From positions 1 to 64,000 of the IMG/VR virus record IMGVR_UViG_2630968627_000001: DNA of 64,000 nt; one strand, given 5' to 3'. Both the position numbers and the translations under genes were made by a program. This document shows positions 22,594-29,885 of this stretch, piece by piece (positions within the stretch are counted from its first letter, which is position 1; each line of letters opens with the position of its first letter). The notes below the pieces were generated by a model. That model saw only the letters and a list, made by a program, of their open reading frames with translations, did no database searches and was not told the DNA's origin. Source of the DNA: a virus. Its lineage: Duplodnaviria > Caudoviricetes.

Positions 22594-24543
22594 TCAATTC
22601 CTGGGTGCGTCCATTCGTTCGCGGTCTTCCATTCGACCTTCCATATCGTCAGAGTAGTCCCCGTCCCCGGCGGAGAACCAGGTGGATCGGCGTTCGAGCA
22701 TGTTGGTGTACGCTCCCGTTACCGCATCCGCCACGTCCTTGGATCCTGTGACTGGGTGGTCTACTTTGTCCTTGGTCGAATCGTACTCTAAATCGATGTA
22801 CTCGCCTATCAATTCCGGGTCATTCAACAGGATAAGACGCCCGTCGTACATGGCATCCCGCGCCTGCTTATGTGGGGTGCTGCTGCGGTCCATAGAGATC
22901 TCGCGTGCTCGCCACCCCGCCTTGCGCCATTGCTGGATAGACTCGCGTGATTGGAAGCCGTCATACGACACCCCTTTGATGGGATAGCCGTGGTGCTTCT
23001 GGAGGCTCTGGGCGAAGGCCCGCACCTCTGCGATGTCGATCTCATTGTTGGCGTCTGGTTTGATGGACGCGGCCATCTCTACGATACCGACAGGCAGTCG
23101 TTCCTTGATCGGATCCTTCTGGGAGTCCCCCATTCTAGTCACCTCCGCCATGCCGGCGAAGGCCACCATTGCTATACCCAGCCTGTCCCCGGTCAAGGCC
23201 AAGTCAATGTGGATATAGCGTGGGCGCGAGGGGTTGGCGCAGTAATGGCCAGGCTTGACTCGCAGCATGCCGTCCACGCCCAGGATGACGTGATCCTTTT
23301 CCAGGAACGATTCCAGCCCGCGCTCGACACCCAGCTCTGCCGATTCGTAGATCTTGTGGCGGGATTTGATGAATGGCGAGATGACGTTGCTAGAGATCCC
23401 CATGACGTCTCGGAGGGCGTCGTAGATCCCGGTGGAGTTGAAGTCGCCCAGGTATTCGATGGGAACTTCTTCGATCCACACGCCAGGAATGTCTATGACC
23501 TCGTCGTCGCCCAGGACTCGTGTGTCGTGCTGGACTTCGTTGGCGATCATCAAGCGGAATTTCTTGCCGGAGAATCGGCTGGCCGGCAGCACATCGTACT
23601 GTCGTCGGTTATAGATGTAGCAGTGGATGGACTTGCCGCCATCCTTGCGTACCTCGTCGCGCCGCTTGTCCGTGAAGTCGCCCCGGTATCGGGTGGACGA
23701 GGACGAGATGACCTTACCGATGGTTGGGCCTGGTCGCAGGAACCGGGACTTCTTCCGTCGGGTCAGTGTGGAGTGTACCTGTGCCGCCTGGTTGTACACG
23801 CCGCTGCGTCCCGTACCGGCTTCAGCCTTCTTGGACTTCATGACGACGTTCATAAAGTTGATCTCGTCAATGACCGCGTGGATACATGCTTCCCCGATCA
23901 CCGCGTCCTCGTCGCCGCCCGCTGGTACAACCCGGATGTTCTTCTTCTCGAAAATCATCTCGCTGGTGGTCAGCTTGTCGGGCATGTAGTTGCGCTGGAA
24001 CCAGGGCATGGCCTCCAGGTACTTACGAGCTGGCATGTAGACAACCTTGCGCATGACGTGTGGCTTGGCCGCCAGGAACGCCAGAACGATAGTCGTAGCG
24101 GAGGACAGGCCGTACCAACGCTGGGGGTTTTGCAGGCAGTGCAGCAGGTACAGAGCGTACAAGGTATCAATGATGGACAGGGTGGTCTTGGCCGTACCCG
24201 TCGCTCCCATGAATACTGCTTCTTCGTACCCGCCCCGTCCGATGCCCTTCCACCAGTCCTGGTTCAGCTCAATGGCAGTACGCCGTACCTCTGGCCAGAT
24301 ACTCAAGTCGGTGGCCCCAAGAAAGTCTGGGCCATCCAGAAACTCCTCCATGCTGACCGGGATGTGCTCCAGGTTCTCCATGAAGTCGAACAGGTTGCTC
24401 TTGCCGTACAGCATGCGCTCCTGTACCGCGTGGACATACATCTGGGCGTACATCGTACCGCCCATACGCTCGGCCTGCTCCCTGATCCGCGCCAGCAAGG
24501 CTCGTTTGCGTGGCGGCAGGGTTGGTTCCTGGGATGCCGTCAT
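22594..24543 (-). CDS. terL: Terminase large subunit
   Basis: Walker A GATGTAKT, Walker B AVIDEINF, nuclease HIDLALTGD, YDGFQS, KVDHP..GSKDVADA. Confidence 0.88.
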   Translation of the reverse strand: MTASQEPTLPPRKRALLARIREQAERMGGTMYAQMYVHAVQERMLYGKSNLFDFMENLEHIPVSMEEFLDGPDFLGATDLSIWPEVRRTAIELNQDWWKGIGRGGYEEAVFMGATGTAKTTLSIIDTLYALYLLHCLQNPQRWYGLSSATTIVLAFLAAKPHVMRKVVYMPARKYLEAMPWFQRNYMPDKLTTSEMIFEKKNIRVVPAGGDEDAVIGEACIHAVIDEINFMNVVMKSKKAEAGTGRSGVYNQAAQVHSTLTRRKKSRFLRPGPTIGKVISSSSTRYRGDFTDKRRDEVRKDGGKSIHCYIYNRRQYDVLPASRFSGKKFRLMIANEVQHDTRVLGDDEVIDIPGVWIEEVPIEYLGDFNSTGIYDALRDVMGISSNVISPFIKSRHKIYESAELGVERGLESFLEKDHVILGVDGMLRVKPGHYCANPSRPRYIHIDLALTGDRLGIAMVAFAGMAEVTRMGDSQKDPIKERLPVGIVEMAASIKPDANNEIDIAEVRAFAQSLQKHHGYPIKGVSYDGFQSRESIQQWRKAGWRAREISMDRSSTPHKQARDAMYDGRLILLNDPELIGEYIDLEYDSTKDKVDHPVTGSKDVADAVTGAYTNMLERRSTWFSAGDGDYSDDMEGRMEDRERMDAPRN

Positions 24544-25388
24544 AGTTCAACATGCTCCTGTGCTGCTTCAGAGTCGGAGTCCCGGAAGGATCCAAAGCCT
24601 TCGTCGCCTCCCCCGCCCTCTACTGGCTGCTCGTCTGCTTCCACGTTGTTCAACAGCTCGCGTGTCATCTGCATCAGCACCTGTGCATCGGACAACGTGC
24701 CGCCAGTCTGGGATTGACGGAAGCGGACAGCTTCAAGGAACCCGGACGAGTGCAGGAATTTAACCTTGTCTGCCTGGGCGACCATAGCGGTACGCATTGC
24801 GGCCAGTCGAATAGGTGCTGGCAGGGCTTGTGCCCCGGAATTCTGGTCTACCATGCGGACAGCCTGGGCCGTCATCTCGGAGTAGAACTCCATCTGCTCG
24901 CCGATGATCTGGTCGATGTTCAGCGCCTGGGCGTTCTCTCGCATACGAGCGGCCAGCGCCCGCTTGTCCCGCTGGACAGTGGAGACGGAGATACCCAAGG
25001 ATTGTGCGATACGATCCAGCGGGATCCGGCGCATCAGCAGACGCTGCACCAGGCCCATACGATACTCCTGGACCACTTCGCTAGGCATGGACCCGGAGAT
25101 CGCTGCCAGACGGGCGGCAGGGGTTGTACCGAGGACGTCATCAACGCCGTCATCAGACTGGGCCGCAGGGGCTGGAATGGGGGCGCGAGGCAGAGTAGGA
25201 GGACGGGCGCGGTTATTCGCCTCGTACTCTGGATCGACCAGATCGTCTACCTCGTCTGGTTCGTGCTCGCTGCCGCGCATGGTTACGCCGTCGTTGGGTC
25301 GTGTGCCAGAACCCCGCAGTGCTGCTGCGCGGGACCGGCGAACAATGGCACGACGCCGTGGTTCCTGGTTATCCGCTGGTACGCTCAT
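24540..25388 (-). CDS. Putative terminase small subunit
   Basis: HTH (LDRIAQSLGISVSTVQRD); directly upstream of and overlapping terL. Confidence 0.65.
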   Translation of the reverse strand: MSVPADNQEPRRRAIVRRSRAAALRGSGTRPNDGVTMRGSEHEPDEVDDLVDPEYEANNRARPPTLPRAPIPAPAAQSDDGVDDVLGTTPAARLAAISGSMPSEVVQEYRMGLVQRLLMRRIPLDRIAQSLGISVSTVQRDKRALAARMRENAQALNIDQIIGEQMEFYSEMTAQAVRMVDQNSGAQALPAPIRLAAMRTAMVAQADKVKFLHSSGFLEAVRFRQSQTGGTLSDAQVLMQMTRELLNNVEADEQPVEGGGGDEGFGSFRDSDSEAAQEHVEL

Positions 25389-25390
25389 AT

Positions 25391-26122
25391 CTATCCCCGA
25401 ACGCAATAGTAGGTGGCGAACATCGCATAGCGGGTGGTCTCATAGACCTGATACCCCATCTCGGCCGCCGCCTTCAGAAAGTGAAACTTAGACATTGGCC
25501 ACATAGCTCCCGCCAATGCGCGGGTCTTGGCCTCGATTTCTTCACGAGTATACCCGTGACGCATGCGGAAGTGAATGTACTCGTCGTGCATGGCCTCGCC
25601 AGTTGGCCCCTCGTGGGATTCTTTGTGGCCCATAATGAACACGCCGCCCGGTCGTACCAGGTCCATGACCTCCCGCAGTCGGCGGGCTTGTACGTGAGGG
25701 TCAACGAATTGCATGACGTAGTTCAGGACGACGACATCGTAGGATCCCTGGCCGCCCGCTGGGGCCGCCTCATTGAGATCTACGTACTCTATCTGGTGCT
25801 GGCTGTAGTCCCTTGTCAGGTAGGACAACATGTCCTTGGAGTGCTCCATAAGCGTGAGCCGGTACGCTGGCGAATCCTCAGCCCAGTGTAGACCTACTGC
25901 ATCAGCAAAGGCCCCACGCGATGCGCCGACGTCCAGCATGTGTACCATGCGACGGGCTGCGAAGTGTTTACGCAACATGCTGGCGTGCATGCTGTGGGCT
26001 TCATAGAAGTTGGGGATGCTACGCGCTGCCATGTTCGGGAATACAGCAGCTACCTCTGCATCAAACTCGAACTTGTCGGGCTTGGCAGGGAAGTGCTTTG
26101 TCCCTTTGTCTTCGTTTGTCAT
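25391..26122 (-). CDS. cmoA: CmoA-like carboxy-SAM synthase family protein
   Basis: FEFDAEVAAVFPNMAARSIP, LDVGASRG, VVLNYVMQF, PGG.FIMGHK, F...GYT.EEI.AK..L match E. coli CmoA motifs in order. Confidence 0.8.
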   Translation of the reverse strand: MTNEDKGTKHFPAKPDKFEFDAEVAAVFPNMAARSIPNFYEAHSMHASMLRKHFAARRMVHMLDVGASRGAFADAVGLHWAEDSPAYRLTLMEHSKDMLSYLTRDYSQHQIEYVDLNEAAPAGGQGSYDVVVLNYVMQFVDPHVQARRLREVMDLVRPGGVFIMGHKESHEGPTGEAMHDEYIHFRMRHGYTREEIEAKTRALAGAMWPMSKFHFLKAAAEMGYQVYETTRYAMFATYYCVRG

Positions 26123-26144
26123 TGGTGACTCCGGTATATGCCGT

Positions 26145-26180
26145 AAAAGAAAGTAGGCCCCATGTTAACGGGGCCGTACT
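26145..26180 (-). terminator. Terminator-like hairpin between the ParB-MTase and cmoA-like genes
   Basis: GGCCCC-loop-GGGGCC followed by TACTTTCTTTT on the minus strand. Confidence 0.6.
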
Positions 26181-26197
26181 CTCTTGTCACTAAATGG

Positions 26198-27733
26198 CTA
26201 TACCAAACCCAGCCGTTTCATAAAGGATTCTTTGGCCAGCTCGGCCGAATCCAGGTTACTACCGTCCGTAAATGGCAGGGTGAATTCAAACTCCAGGCTC
26301 TTCATCAAGGCGGGTATGTTGGGGCGCTTGGGGTTCTCCAGCTTGAAATAGAAGATGTTGCCCCCGCCCCAATACTGGGCACTGCCCCAGAAGCGTTTGA
26401 ACATCCGGTCTGCCTCTTCCTGTGTGTGGAATTTTTGCAGCTTGGGTCGGCTGGTGATGTCCCCGATACGTACGCCCGGTTCCGTGTCCATTACAAAGTA
26501 GGTGCTGCGCCGCTCGCCCCCATATTCATAATTGAAGTCAGAGATGTCCCGGCAGGTGCCGTACACCGCTGTGTCCGGGGAGCAAAGAGCGTTGACGATG
26601 GCCAGTACCATCAGCCGGTCTTCCAGGAACGGAATGGAGTTCATGACCGCCGACATGAAGATCGAATCGAAGCGGACATCTGGGTTTGCAATCGATTGCA
26701 AAAACTCTCTGGCCTTCTGTCTGGAGTATTCCGGGCTTGGCTCCCCCTTGCCGCTGTCTGGCTCAATCAGGTAGGGTTCAAAGGACAGTGCGTCGAATCC
26801 CTTCTCCCGTAGGTAGGGGGCCACCTTGTCCAGTCCCGCCCCGAAGTCCAGGATCTTGTTGCCGTGTATGCGTCGGAATTCGGCCCAGGCTTCCTGCGTG
26901 TAAGACTCCTTGTCTGACAGGGTGCGGCAACCATTGGCCCAGAAGCGATAAGACTTGGGGACCGCCCCTTTGTCATTGGATGCGCGTCGGAACGCCCCCG
27001 CCCGCAGCAGATCCTTGAAGTCCCCGTCAATCTTGTAATCCATTGACAGGTAGTTCAGGAACTGTCGGGCTACCTCGCCGTGGGCATCAGGGATGCGAAC
27101 GACAGGCCAGGTCTTCTCCCCTATCTCGGCGGCAGAGAACATGCGGTAGATGCCGTTGACAACGTCCCCGCTGTGCGTGACGACGGCAGGGATGCGGATA
27201 CCCTTGCGCAGCAATGTGTGGGCCGCCAGGACGGCCTTGCGGTCGTACAGGTCAGCCTTGTCGGCCAGGACGGTAGCGATGACCTCGTCCTTGCATTGCA
27301 TGGCGGCAGGGTTGTCGAGATCCGCGTCGGGCAGACTGTCTGCGGCTGCGGCCACCGCTCGCATGTCCAGCTTATCCTCCATCTTCGCCCCGGTATCGAA
27401 CGAGGTGAAGTCGTTGGTCACTCGGTTGAACAGGATGTTGATGCCCTTGACGTCCTTGTCGTCCAGGTCGATCTCCATTACCGGCAGTTTGGTGTACCCG
27501 ACCTCGCGGGCCATGGACTGGCGCTGGTGGCCCGACAGGAGCTTGTTGGTGCCCTTCTGTACGTAGACTGGCATCAGGAACCCCAGCTTGGCCAGGGACA
27601 GCCGCAGCATGCCTAAGCGGCCCTCGTGGGCCTGCCGGGGGTTGGTAGTATCAGGGATCAGCGAGTCAATGTCTCGCATAACAACGGCGGATGGGTTCGT
27701 GCGGCGGATTCGCGTTCGGCGTACTGTGGCCAT
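26198..27733 (-). CDS. ParB-N domain(s) fused to a class I SAM-dependent methyltransferase-like domain
   Basis: NPR...LLSGHQR; second VVNGIYR; ILDFGAG motif I; FDSIFMSAVMNSIP. Confidence 0.8.
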   Translation of the reverse strand: MATVRRTRIRRTNPSAVVMRDIDSLIPDTTNPRQAHEGRLGMLRLSLAKLGFLMPVYVQKGTNKLLSGHQRQSMAREVGYTKLPVMEIDLDDKDVKGINILFNRVTNDFTSFDTGAKMEDKLDMRAVAAAADSLPDADLDNPAAMQCKDEVIATVLADKADLYDRKAVLAAHTLLRKGIRIPAVVTHSGDVVNGIYRMFSAAEIGEKTWPVVRIPDAHGEVARQFLNYLSMDYKIDGDFKDLLRAGAFRRASNDKGAVPKSYRFWANGCRTLSDKESYTQEAWAEFRRIHGNKILDFGAGLDKVAPYLREKGFDALSFEPYLIEPDSGKGEPSPEYSRQKAREFLQSIANPDVRFDSIFMSAVMNSIPFLEDRLMVLAIVNALCSPDTAVYGTCRDISDFNYEYGGERRSTYFVMDTEPGVRIGDITSRPKLQKFHTQEEADRMFKRFWGSAQYWGGGNIFYFKLENPKRPNIPALMKSLEFEFTLPFTDGSNLDSAELAKESFMKRLGLV

Positions 27734-27735
27734 AG

Positions 27736-28485
27736 TTACTCCGTGGATATGCCAAGGCGGCGGGTTACTTCCAGGGCTACCTGCTCTTCGTCAAACTCGC
27801 ACATGGTACGTACGCCGTCTACCCAACGGCGGTAGTTCGCGGCAGGTACGAAGCAGACGATGTCGCCGATAACGATGCGGGTGGTCTGGGGTGCGCGGCG
27901 TGGCGCTGCTGCGATGCGCTCGCCCTCGTCCGGGGTCACCAGGTCGTCCGTGCTCAGGCAGTCGTCGCTGACCAGTGCGCTCAAGCAGTCGATCTCTGCC
28001 TCGGTCCAGCCCAAGTTGGAGATGTCGTAGCCCACTGCGGACAGTTGCTGCATTTCTGCCATCAACAGTTCCGTGTTCCAGGTGGCCAGCTCGGACAGCT
28101 TGTTGTCGGCCAGACGGAATGCCTTGGCTTGCGCCGGTGTCAGGTGGCTTGCGCGGATGATAGGGATCTCGGCTACGCCAATCTTGATAGCTGCCTTGAC
28201 GCGGGTATGTCCTGTAATGAGTACGCCCTTGTCGTCAATTACACAAGGAACCAGGAACCCGAACTGCCGGATGGAGTTGGCCACCTGGTCTACTGCTGCG
28301 TCGTTGTCTCGGGGGTTGTATTCGTACCCTCGGACGCTGCTGATAGGCAGGATTTCGATGCTTACTTTAGGGATCTCGAAAGAGTTGGGTTGCGGCGCTG
28401 CGCGGGTCGCGGTCTTCTTGGCTACCTTGGCGGCAGCGGGTCGGCTTGCCGTCTTGGCTGGTGTACGGCGGCGTGAGGTGGTCAT
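27736..28485 (-). CDS. ParB/Srx-like N-terminal domain protein
   Basis: YEYNPRDN...SIRQFGF..P..ID...ITGHTR..AA...RLADNK. Confidence 0.88.
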   Translation of the reverse strand: MTTSRRRTPAKTASRPAAAKVAKKTATRAAPQPNSFEIPKVSIEILPISSVRGYEYNPRDNDAAVDQVANSIRQFGFLVPCVIDDKGVLITGHTRVKAAIKIGVAEIPIIRASHLTPAQAKAFRLADNKLSELATWNTELLMAEMQQLSAVGYDISNLGWTEAEIDCLSALVSDDCLSTDDLVTPDEGERIAAAPRRAPQTTRIVIGDIVCFVPAANYRRWVDGVRTMCEFDEEQVALEVTRRLGISTE

Positions 28486-28499
28486 GTTTTCAATCCTCG

Positions 28500-28525
28500 A
28501 AAAAAAGGCCCCGGTTAAGGGGCCT
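28500..28525 (-). terminator. Intrinsic terminator
   Basis: AGGCCCC-loop-GGGGCCTTTTTT on the minus strand. Confidence 0.75.
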
Positions 28526-28547
28526 GGTGCGGGACAGGCCCTGGGCC

Positions 28548-29885
28548 TTATGTGCGGACTTTGGTGCGACCTTTGCCCTTGGCAGGGGTAGCTGGCTGGT
28601 CTTCGTCTTCTACGTGGGCGCTTTCAGACGCTTTGGTAGTAGGGGCATTGGCCAGGCTCCACTCGCTCAGGATGTGCATCAGAGCGGCGGCGTCGTCAGC
28701 CAGGGCAAGCTGCTCGGTAGCCAGGGCCAGGGCATCGTTGACAATTGCCGCGTCGTTTTCAGGGAAGCGGAACTTCAGCGATACATACTTCAGGCGCTCG
28801 CCCTCGCCAGTGCCGGCCTGCTGCGTGTGCTCGGTGATGGCCAGAGTCAGATCCTTGACCGAGTTGGTGTTGGCCAGTTCAATCAGGTCTTCCGCCTCGC
28901 CGCCTTCAGCGATCTTCGGTGCGATCTTGGCAGCTTTGGTCCAGCCGATTTCAGCAACGCGCTGGCCTGGGTTCTCGATACCGGCTTTGGTGAATTCGCG
29001 GTAGATCTGGATCAGGTGCATCGCCTTGCGGTAGTCGATGTTGTAATACTCCTGCAAGAACAGTTTGAAGCCGCCCGATTCCGCGTACTGCTCGTGACCT
29101 TCCACGGTTTCGTCCAGGTACGCTTTGGTGATGTGGATGTGGTGAAGCACACCGCCCAGTTCCCATTCGCGGTTACCGATTTCGCTTTCCAGCTCGGCAG
29201 CAACGGCGATCAGGTTACCGTCGGCGACCAGGGCCAGAACTGCGGGGTCTTCATTTTCCAGCTCTTCACCGTCTGTGTCGCCGCCCTGCGACTGCTGATC
29301 GGCAGCTTCTGCTGCGCGGGCTGCGGCTTCTTCAGCGGCCTTGGCTTCGGCTTCGGCCTTCTTGCGTTCGGCGGCCGTAGGCTTCTTGGCGACAGGCTTC
29401 TTGGGTTCTTCGGCCGGTGGGTCTTCGGCGGCTGCTGCCTTGCCCTTGGCTGCGGTCTTGGCGGCGGGCTTGGCCGGGGTCTTGGCGGCTGTCTTGGCGG
29501 CAGGTTTAGCAGGGGCGGGTGCCGCTTCTTCCTGTTCGACTTCTTCGCCAGCTTCAGCGATTTCTTCGTCGGTAGCAGGACGGATTTCGTCGCCCATGGC
29601 TTCCAGTTCCAGGAAGCGAGGATTGCTGTTCTTGTTCTCGCGCTTGGACTCGTCAAAGTCCGGGTTGGGTGCGCGGAGATAGAAGCCGGTCATGTACGCG
29701 CCTTGTTCGTCTTCGGCTTCTGCGGGCAGGCTGTTGATGGGGTATACCGCGCCCTCTTCCAGGACGGGTTCGCCTTCTTCAGGTGCTGCGCCTTCGCCGT
29801 AGCCAAGGAAGACAACGTATTCGCCTGCTACCAGGTCGTCAACGGTCAGTTGTTTGGTTTTCGATTTTGCGGGTGCTTTTGCCAT
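28548..29885 (-). CDS. Acidic Ala/Lys/Pro-rich protein with DUF3102-like helical domain
   Basis: PAAKTAAK linker; WELGGVL...FKLFLQE..NIDYRKAMHLIQIY...IGWTKA. Confidence 0.6.
   Translation of the reverse strand: MAKAPAKSKTKQLTVDDLVAGEYVVFLGYGEGAAPEEGEPVLEEGAVYPINSLPAEAEDEQGAYMTGFYLRAPNPDFDESKRENKNSNPRFLELEAMGDEIRPATDEEIAEAGEEVEQEEAAPAPAKPAAKTAAKTPAKPAAKTAAKGKAAAAEDPPAEEPKKPVAKKPTAAERKKAEAEAKAAEEAAARAAEAADQQSQGGDTDGEELENEDPAVLALVADGNLIAVAAELESEIGNREWELGGVLHHIHITKAYLDETVEGHEQYAESGGFKLFLQEYYNIDYRKAMHLIQIYREFTKAGIENPGQRVAEIGWTKAAKIAPKIAEGGEAEDLIELANTNSVKDLTLAITEHTQQAGTGEGERLKYVSLKFRFPENDAAIVNDALALATEQLALADDAAALMHILSEWSLANAPTTKASESAHVEDEDQPATPAKGKGRTKVRT

Follow-up and report, generated by a model that had tools for sequence, protein, structure and literature searches.

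A candidate carboxy-SAM-dependent DNA modification module of ParB, ParB-methyltransferase and CmoA-like genes beside the terminase genes of a tailed phage

Introduction

Modification of phage DNA with carboxy-S-adenosylmethionine (Cx-SAM) as cofactor was first described in December 2025 and, in the accessible text of that report, for the C5 position of cytosine only and by homologues of C5 methylases (PMC12783734). The CmoA of Synechococcus phage S-B43 was shown biochemically to make Cx-SAM, and the products of its CmoA-CmoX-CmoY system are 5-carboxymethylcytosine and the glycine amide of this base (PMC12783734). Arg350 of CmoX binds the carboxymethyl group; the wild-type enzyme accepted Cx-SAM only, an R350N variant accepted neither cofactor, and ParBc proteins accompany CmoX in 1660 contigs (PMC12783734). 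Here we analyse a 64,000-nucleotide stretch of DNA from a tailed phage (IMG/VR record IMGVR_UViG_2630968627_000001, positions 1 to 64,000; "the window" in the following), in which genes for a stand-alone ParB, a ParB-ParB-methyltransferase fusion and a CmoA-like protein lie directly upstream of the putative terminase genes. If these genes work together as we propose, the fusion would represent a second transferase family, unrelated to the first, that uses the Cx-SAM cofactor. An earlier, sequence-only reading of the locus had pointed to a cyanophage reported to pair CmoA with a C5-type enzyme, and S-B43 is indeed such a phage (PMC12783734).

Besides this system, two further lines of work are relevant. 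Phages are enriched in fusions of the ParB fold to Methyltransf_23 domains, for which a role as DNA methylases has been predicted, and some bacterial fusions of ParB to a methyltransferase dependent on S-adenosylmethionine (SAM) bound ATP (PMC12704722). In addition, the phage protein ParB176, which has no obvious DNA-binding domain, is needed by the post-replicative thymine dioxygenase 5mYOX176 on double-stranded DNA (PMC13229309). It has also been reported that ordinary methyltransferases can use Cx-SAM (PMC7496830).

Results

Conservation of the module

The five consecutive, co-oriented genes of the sequence-only reading are all present as open reading frames on the minus strand (Table 1), and family matches agree with the identities given there: ParB, ParB-methyltransferase fusion, CmoA-like protein, small (TerS) and large (TerL) terminase subunits. 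We put the chances at about even that the first three form a conserved phage module which carboxymethylates phage DNA. The CmoA-like enzyme would convert host SAM and prephenate to Cx-SAM, and the class I domain of the fusion, from a family unrelated to CmoX (C5-cytosine) and CmoB, would take Cx-SAM instead of SAM and place its carboxymethyl group on a nucleobase. To reach double-stranded DNA, the enzyme would rely on both ParB/Srx-fold domains of the fusion and on the stand-alone ParB, possibly in a manner dependent on nucleoside triphosphates (NTP), and the likely purpose would be protection against host restriction and other DNA-targeting defences. From sequence comparisons we infer that Cx-SAM is made and that the fusion uses it, that DNA is the target, and what the biological role would be.

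The gene order was followed in three sets of loci: a near clade of 28 IMG/VR loci with transferases 50-66% identical to that of the window, a distant clade (28-36% identical) with 80 loci kept of the 345 IMG/VR stretches encoding a relative, and a bacterial set with 80 loci kept of 176 stretches in species-representative bacterial genomes and metagenome-assembled genomes (MAGs). Loci are called informative if they have enough flanking DNA. Near-clade loci carry a CmoA-like gene downstream, in the same orientation, in 24/28 cases (24/25 informative); three of the misses have at most 343 nucleotides (nt) downstream, and the fourth carries a CmoA-like gene 7.3 kb further on the same contig. The distant clade, with TerL of family phrog_15 as against phrog_9 in the window, has the gene in 78/80 loci (78/79 informative), one miss having 26 nt downstream and one being a true exception. 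For the bacterial genomes the count is 68/80, or 68-70 of 73 informative loci, and the misses comprise seven loci with less than 900 nt downstream, one locus cut by the contig end, one fragment and three true exceptions. This is the neighbourhood comparison proposed along with the sequence-only reading, and the genes do co-occur in nearly all informative loci across deeply diverged phages. Comparative genomics thus lends partial support to the interpretation given in that reading.

Cultured phages give the same picture. Wherever the transferase is full-length, in 14 of 14 records (12 Samunavirus, Aeromonas HJ05 and Gordonia Evaa), a CmoA-like gene is present as well, and none of the 12 records that match the ParB part only (other ParB-methylase fusions and ParB proteins) is among the CmoA matches. 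Starting from the CmoA side, the transferase is encoded just upstream in 43 of 45 loci and 7.3 kb away in one more. The stand-alone ParB gene precedes the fusion gene in 70/72, 39/39 and 73/74 informative loci (182/185). By record title or listed host, the hosts belong to at least eight phyla; the titles of the bacterial loci (L152-L231) name Cyanobacteriota, Verrucomicrobiota, Chloroflexota, Planctomycetota, Bacteroidota and Rhodothermota as well as Alpha-, Beta- and Gammaproteobacteria. Several bacterial copies reside on contigs of 0.7-1.8 Mb, which is consistent with integrated prophages; for copies on short contigs, binning errors are possible.

The last of the 45 CmoA-side loci, L151, is informative in another respect. 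No ParB-methyltransferase fusion was found on this contig, and the same slot is occupied by a C5 methylase homologue of 526 amino acids (aa), whose gene overlaps the start of the cmoA-like gene by 4 nt (L151:5385-7708). This protein has the PF00145 fold, the SPPC motif and an equivalent of Arg350, and its best match in the PDB is SpCmoX (8YF3, E 2.6e-58, vs 8e-24 for M.HaeIII); its ~200 extra N-terminal residues show no ParB similarity (hhalign probability 0.1%). L151, from an uncultured phage, probably encodes a 5-carboxymethylcytosine system. Therefore, the known Cx-SAM DNA enzyme and the new family appear interchangeable beside the same CmoA subfamily.

In the Erwinia jumbo phage Yoloswag (L239:4971-6629; record positions 26453-28423), a protein with a weak match to Asn-synthase/PP-loop-like proteins (25.9 bits) comes after a CmoA homologue of 135.6 bits, and there is a C5 methylase match elsewhere in the genome. 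Yoloswag probably carries a system of the published CmoA/CmoX/CmoY type.

The CmoA-like protein

By sequence, the CmoA-like protein belongs with CmoA and with no other family. TIGR00740 is its top NCBIfam family (72.2 bits; the next non-CmoA model, BioC, reaches 27 bits), and it matches phrog_4752 with E 2e-42. Its family profile aligns over the full length with the CmoA structures of Escherichia coli (4GEK, E 3.9e-46) and Haemophilus influenzae (4GEK and 1IM8 ~4e-46 over positions 19-248), and the next non-CmoA structure is matched at 2e-14. The motifs FD..V..F(P/D).M..RS(I/V)P.Y, LQF, EK and NGY..EI..K are common to the window protein and E. coli CmoA, at an overall identity of ~22%. TIGR00740 is likewise the top NCBIfam family for all other members tested (L040-type 73.6, Evaa 105.4 and L063-type 169.0 bits). 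An Arg at window position 231 is common to all phage members including the S-B43 enzyme SpCmoA, and E. coli CmoA has Gln there. In a quick maximum-likelihood tree, the deep forks of which are weak and the root of which is arbitrary, E. coli CmoA, a host CmoA, SpCmoA and the CmoX-linked CmoA are scattered among the proteins linked to ParB-methyltransferases.

We consider it very probable that this protein makes Cx-SAM. It could otherwise be a diverged methyltransferase or produce another SAM derivative, working with or beside the fusion, and its score well below the curated TIGR00740 equivalog cut-off (193.3 bits) as well as the low identity to the E. coli enzyme would fit such a role. The same holds for the lack of Arg199, the only residue that the accessible text on E. 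coli CmoA reports as contacting the Cx-SAM carboxylate (PMC4482062); the window protein reads K199-T200, with Thr200 at this position, which is variable in its clade. However, the biochemically validated SpCmoA shows the same two deviations, as it scores 115.6 bits and reads K-E, with Glu in the place of Arg199. The cut-off is thus too strict for phage members. Furthermore, the L063-type relatives linked to the fusion family, with scores of up to 169 bits, keep Lys-Arg at 198-199, and in L151 a protein from the same subfamily has as its partner the CmoX-type enzyme that bears the Arg350 equivalent. A CmoA-like protein that is no Cx-SAM synthase is therefore very unlikely in our view.

The ParB proteins and the fused transferase

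The C-terminal domain of the fusion is a class I SAM-dependent methyltransferase fold, with motif I (DFGAG), the acidic residue of beta-2 (Glu319) and a Rossmann fold. The protein matches Methyltransf_23 with 37.6 bits (cut-off 27) and phrog_5475 with E 7e-124 over its whole length. An AlphaFold2 (AF2) model of the full-length fusion, with a predicted local distance difference test score (pLDDT) of 77, consists of an N-terminal ParB fold, a second alpha/beta unit and the C-terminal Rossmann domain; the latter, folded alone with 131 homologues, reached pLDDT 93.8 and a predicted TM-score (pTM) of 0.92. The family is small and clearly delimited, with 260 representatives at E<=1e-3 among 1.84 billion sequences, and among the best 150 of these 260, 125 are 400-600 aa long and match from about residue 200, so that the fusion architecture is the rule. 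In one member, P0248 (891 aa), the ParB part is separated from the methyltransferase domain by a LAGLIDADG-type insertion (PF14528, 33 bits), which may be an intein or a homing-endonuclease insertion.

The sequence-only reading had noted that the transferase lacks the Pro-Cys of C5 enzymes and has DFGAG and SAVMNSIP; both motifs were found, and the Pro-Cys was not. Within the NSIPF loop, which follows directly on beta-4 at the motif IV position and is presumably catalytic, N365, S366, P368 and F369 are invariant in 201/201 family sequences. The same is true for motif I, Glu319, D372-R373, R244, E418, K431 and Q433, and R249, K434 and E483 are invariant in 200/201. The nearest folds in the PDB are glycine N-methyltransferase (GNMT), glycine-sarcosine N-methyltransferase (GSMT), CcbJ and ToxA (E ~1e-7, TM 0.41-0.57). 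Since there is no C5-type Cys machinery, the N-S-x-P-F loop is invariant and the nearest folds are N-methyltransferases, we lean towards an exocyclic or ring nitrogen as the atom that would be modified.

Catalytic loops of DNA amino-methylases have the motif (D/N/S)PP(Y/F/W). The fusion has no such motif; its N-S-I-P-F loop is one residue longer. It does not fall into the known DNA amino-methyltransferase families, as it neither matches PF01555 or PF02086 nor carries the canonical motif. It is no CmoX either (no PF00145 match, no SPPC motif), and CmoB was ruled out for want of a TIGR00452 match, the similarity being of the generic Rossmann kind. An hhalign comparison with E. coli CmoB gave 27% probability over beta1-beta4 only and placed N365, with low confidence, opposite Tyr200. 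In CmoB, Tyr200 contacts the Cx-SAM carboxylate, and the triad Lys91/Tyr200/Arg315 binds the carboxymethyl group (PMC4482062).

The stand-alone ParB and the first N-terminal domain of the fusion both belong to the ParB/Srx fold, as seen from PHROG matches and the box I and box II motifs. The former scores 26.0 bits for ParB_N (cut-off 26.3) and matches phrog_620 (E 5e-49) and phrog_498 (DNA methyltransferase, N-terminal part; E 5e-41); its homologue in phage SM1 is annotated as cd16402, ParB_N_like_MT. The fusion reaches 21.5 bits for ParB_N, below the same cut-off, and E 3e-17 for the PHROG ParB family, and its first domain aligns with Noc/ParB structures at GERR. Residues N31, P32, R33, G68 and R71 in this domain, and N193, G194 and R197 in the following one, are invariant in 201/201 sequences. 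From the AF2 secondary-structure pattern rather than from a scored match, we infer that aa 148-229 form a second ParB fold. By analogy, the ParB176/5mYOX176 pair would be the best model for the role of the stand-alone and fused ParB domains.

It is conceivable that the fusion does use Cx-SAM and that its substrate is not a DNA base. Instead, it could modify a packaging-machinery protein, an RNA, or a nucleotide to which the ParB/Srx-fold domains bind. The nearest folds of the Rossmann domain include N-methyltransferases for small molecules and peptides (GNMT, GSMT, CcbJ, ToxA and CypM), the methyltransferase domain is acidic (pI 5.9), ParB-fold proteins bind CTP, ATP or GTP and are also found among enzymes that do not act on DNA, such as SerK and sulfiredoxin (PMC12704722), and Cx-SAM serves in the tailoring of peptides and antibiotics elsewhere (TglE/F and MccS; PMC10491745). 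Neither a DNA methylase nor CmoB appeared among the matches listed in the fold search with this domain, in which the matches to small-molecule N-methyltransferases were weak; a viral fold library and a protein language-model atlas returned generic class I methyltransferase look-alikes only. Nevertheless, the stand-alone ParB belongs to the kind known from fusions with DNA methylases (phrog_498; cd16402 in SM1), the module sits between replication/recombination genes and packaging genes, a CmoX-type DNA enzyme can occupy the slot of the fusion, and there are no genes for nucleotide salvage or dNTP replacement in the module. We therefore regard a non-DNA substrate as quite unlikely.

Other possible users of Cx-SAM

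The source virus record is complete (100,500 bases, direct terminal repeats), so that the search for other enzymes could cover the whole genome. It contains no match to PF00145 (C5 methylases, CmoX type), PF01555 or PF02086 (N6/N4 and Dam-type methylases) or PF00733 (Asn-synthase-like ligases, CmoY-like), and the absence of a CmoB-like gene, noted in the sequence-only reading, holds for all of it, as judged by TIGR00452. PF00145 was not found in SM1, HJ05 or Evaa either. Among five bacterial genomes bearing the module, CmoB scored above the cut-off in one, a Vibrio; the remainder consists of two Chloroflexi and one isolate each of Puniceicoccaceae and Leptolyngbyaceae (genome completeness unreported). 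Hence, for most of the hosts examined, the view that the phage CmoA does no more than supply host tRNA modification does not hold.

This bears on the possibility that the fusion is a SAM-dependent DNA methyltransferase and the CmoA-like protein has a separate job, either draining host SAM against SAM-dependent defences or feeding host CmoB and tRNA wobble modification. The motif I of the fusion is of the standard SAM type and its Pfam match is to Methyltransf_23; SAM depletion by CmoA is raised as a possibility in the CmoX paper (PMC12783734), and PHROGs and JGI label the CmoA-like family "tRNA methyltransferase". Four loci (L071, L159, L177 and L183) have 3-6 kb of downstream DNA and no CmoA-like gene, and their transferases, like that of L198, keep all invariant positions, no residue separating the CmoA-less transferases from the rest. 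The enzyme may therefore work without a phage CmoA. A host CmoA (241.7 bits) was found in one of three genomes checked among the CmoA-less loci. Yet if the two enzymes were unrelated in function, a SAM consumer beside a SAM-dependent methylase in ~98% of informative loci across such deep divergence would be hard to explain. In addition, the tRNA route is closed in four of five host genomes, and the sole replacement of the fusion, in L151, is a CmoX-type Cx-SAM enzyme. Ordinary methylation with an independent CmoA is thus unlikely, although we give it more weight than the two alternatives above.

Carboxymethylation of DNA by the module remains our preferred interpretation. The CmoA-less loci weigh against it, as do the low TIGR00740 score, the missing Arg199, the missing amino-methylase motif, the acidic domain and the fold matches described above. 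Three further points belong here. No protein fusing CmoA to the transferase was found at E<=1e-5, in a search that is weak as evidence. The co-occurrence can in part reflect a linked block inherited beside the terminase genes. Finally, terminator-like hairpins bracket ParB and the fusion gene and split them from cmoA-like, terS and terL, which suggests that the two form a transcription unit of their own, as ordinary methylation would allow. Terminator-like sites are not enriched across the region (6 observed vs 8.4 expected), so that the hairpin between the fusion gene and cmoA-like is suggestive only through its intergenic position and its six GC pairs.

As an observation on decay of the locus, the prophage L198 in an alphaproteobacterial MAG has a CmoA-like fragment (HMM positions 13-100; L198:7904-8254) downstream of the intact transferase, and this copy may be a decaying module.

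Genomic context

The minus strand carries nearly all genes of the window. In transcriptional order, a replication/recombination block (DNA polymerase, DnaB-like and other helicases, primase, UvsX-like recombinase, exonuclease and RuvC) is followed by a 445-aa protein, ParB, the fusion, the CmoA-like protein, terS and terL. The genes are tightly packed: the ParB stop and the ATG of the fusion gene are 2 nt apart, and terS and terL overlap by 4 nt. The sequence-only reading had placed the cmoA-like stop 2 nt from the likely terS start, and exactly this is seen (TAG, 2 nt, then the ATG of MSVPADN, with a GGGGA stretch upstream of the ATG); the putative TerS is translationally coupled to the cmoA-like gene. 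TerS was assigned by its position, a weak HTH_11 match (17.7 bits) and syntenic homologues upstream of TerL; its equivalent in the distant clade is phrog_57, a terminase small subunit. TerL homologues in syntenic loci are 50-60% identical. The module adjoins terS/terL in the window, in the distant clade and in HJ05, and a single annotated terminase gene in Evaa. It is this position that suggests a coupling of the predicted modification to packaging.

Among cultured phages, the nearest relatives belong to the genus Samunavirus of Pseudomonas aeruginosa phages (PaMx31, SM1, UF_RH6 and others), which have the same gene order and are ~64% identical to the window in DNA over 29-30% of the stretch. 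For PaMx31, the literature search returned a genome announcement only.

Table 1. Features of the locus and of the small gene found in the distant clade. Positions are those of the window unless a locus number is given.
Feature	Positions	Strand	Remarks
phrog_17202 neighbour, 445 aa	28548-29885	minus	Ala/Lys/Pro-rich repeats; upstream of ParB; module membership not established
Terminator-like hairpin with T7 run	28506-28525	minus	upstream of ParB
ParB/Srx-fold protein, stand-alone, 249 aa	27736-28485	minus	NPR and GHTR motifs; type usually fused to phage methylases
ParB-ParB-methyltransferase fusion, 511 aa	26198-27733	minus	candidate carboxymethyltransferase
Fusion, ParB-like domain 1, aa 17-105	27419-27685	minus	NPR aa 31-33 (box I), GHQR aa 68-71 (box II)
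Fusion, second ParB-like alpha/beta domain, aa 148-229	27047-27292	minus	NGxxR aa 193-197
Fusion, class I Rossmann methyltransferase-like domain, aa 231-511	26201-27043	minus	model with pLDDT 93.8
Fusion, motif I DFGAG, aa 296-300	26834-26848	minus	SAM-type cofactor-binding loop
Fusion, NSIPF, aa 365-369 (in SAVMNSIPF)	26627-26641	minus	motif IV position, just after beta-4; presumed catalytic loop
Terminator-like hairpin with T-rich tail	26156-26175	minus	in the 75-nt gap between fusion gene and cmoA-like; 6 GC pairs
CmoA-like protein, 243 aa	25391-26122	minus	probable Cx-SAM synthase
Putative TerS	24540-25406 (longest ORF); 24540-25388 (likely ATG at 25388)	minus	
TerL, 649 aa	22594-24543	minus	phrog_9 E 6.5e-8; phrog_17415 E 4.8e-6
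Small distant-clade gene	L036:9488-9907; L063:9443-9934; L074:4147-4641		

For the 445-aa neighbour, tblastn gave matches upstream of ParB in 23 near-clade loci out of 28, the rest being mostly without upstream DNA, and an AAA ATPase stands in its place in the distant clade. It combines a region of Ala/Lys/Pro/Glu-rich repeats, with 12-nt periodic DNA repeats at ~29445-29500, and a conserved C-terminal half (phrog_17202). No parS-like repeat arrays were found near the module; the only repeats are the coding low-complexity ones in this gene.

Additional genes occur within the module of some relatives. Between the transferase and cmoA-like genes of the distant clade lies a small gene (~140-164 aa, phrog_32036, no Pfam match). 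Its product is 41% identical (E 2e-25) to that of Evaa gene 4, annotated "phosphatase" (L030:2633-3112, minus strand), and looks HAD-like by eye with the motifs LLDLNYT, TARP and ESN. It has no homologue in the window genome and may encode a clade-specific third enzyme of the pathway. Some near-clade relatives carry genes inserted at the same place (L017:2800-3579, L010:6880-7431, L027:7497-8153), which by eye resemble a ThyX-type thymidylate synthase, a dihydrofolate reductase and an HNH-type endonuclease.

Sequence words sampled from 22594-29885 were also sought in public sequencing runs. Eight runs with single-organism labels, from two studies, contain about 2/3 of them, and metagenomes of wastewater, manure, soil, groundwater and sludge contain smaller shares. 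Close relatives are thus in circulation in samples of these kinds.

Discussion

The module is probably a novel case of Cx-SAM-dependent modification of phage DNA, in which the transferase is of an unrelated family and ParB-tethered and the mark is as yet undescribed. In the accessible text of the CmoX paper, a preliminary search of the authors gave no candidates for N6-adenine or N4-cytosine carboxymethyltransferases linked to CmoA in phages (PMC12783734), so that a proposal of this kind is not already in print in that text. Our full-text literature search on natural N6- or N4-carboxymethyl DNA returned only lesions caused by N-nitroso compounds and the CmoX work itself. Relatives of the transferase in 345 IMG/VR stretches and in 176 stretches of species-representative bacterial genomes and MAGs place the module far beyond one phage genus.

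A bolder proposal can be put forward only tentatively, and we hold it to be doubtful: that a large group of tailed phages and prophages, spread over many lineages, writes N6-carboxymethyl-adenine, N4-carboxymethyl-cytosine or a ring-nitrogen equivalent by means of a new transferase family carried along double-stranded DNA by a ParB clamp and supplied with Cx-SAM by a dedicated phage CmoA. The tandem ParB-fold domains and the partner ParB would then act as a sliding clamp, gated by NTP, with its starting point near the packaging site. If true, this would be the first natural carboxymethyl mark on DNA outside C5 and the first clamp-tethered enzyme that modifies DNA bases. Any new base as the product would extend the anti-restriction chemistry of phages, offer a carboxylate in a new position as a handle for DNA labelling and alter the behaviour of such phage genomes in sequencing and cloning. 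It would also give a concrete function to the common and so far unexplained ParB-methyltransferase fusions that adjoin terminase genes. Synthetic standards of N6-carboxymethyl-deoxyadenosine (N6-CMdA) and of N4-carboxymethyl-deoxycytidine (N4-CMdC) are published (PMC2965219). Since cultured and sequenced carriers exist as well (Samunavirus, HJ05 and Gordonia Evaa), the question is directly testable.

Several described systems share parts of this arrangement. The product of phage Mu Mom, N6-carbamoylmethyl-adenine, is the amide of N6-carboxymethyl-adenine, and for this reason an N6 product of the module would be its close cousin. To our knowledge, the Mom fold is not that of a SAM-type Rossmann enzyme, and Mom is not known to involve a CmoA. 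The abstract on Mom names no fold (PMC7261163).

A second comparison concerns the ParB component. The accessible text of the survey of the ParB-CTPase fold contains no occurrence of CmoA and describes neither an obligate CmoA-like neighbour nor tandem ParB-like domains of the kind seen here (PMC12704722). The 5mYOX176 system differs in chemistry, being an Fe/2-oxoglutarate-dependent oxidation, and in architecture, with a ParB that is separate and not fused; mutations of the NTP site were without effect there (PMC13229309).

With respect to the cofactor, TglE/TglF and MccS are alike in that CmoA homologues have been recruited outside tRNA modification and have a dedicated transferase partner (PMC10491745). 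In contrast to the fusion, these transferases are CmoB-like or part of MccB, and they act on peptides or nucleotide antibiotics and not in phage packaging modules (PMC10491745). The bacterial CmoA/CmoB pathway for the tRNA modification cmo5U likewise combines a Cx-SAM synthase with a class I transferase, and the CmoA homology includes the N-terminal lid motif and Lys198. It differs in that the phage has no CmoB, which four of five hosts lack too, in the low hhalign value for the transferases and in the packaging and DNA-metabolism context of the phage genes.

The S-B43 system finally is also close to the locus described here. The transferase of the window is not a C5 methylase (no PF00145, no SPPC and another fold subfamily) and is fused to two ParB-like domains; moreover, the window genome is without a CmoY-like ligase, and its module always adjoins terS/terL. 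Both systems, however, have a phage CmoA homologue beside a DNA-modifying transferase (a predicted one in the window), frequent ParB-domain neighbours and no phage CmoB (PMC12783734). Besides, the two meet in L151, where a relative of the CmoA-like protein of the window is itself paired with a CmoX-type enzyme.

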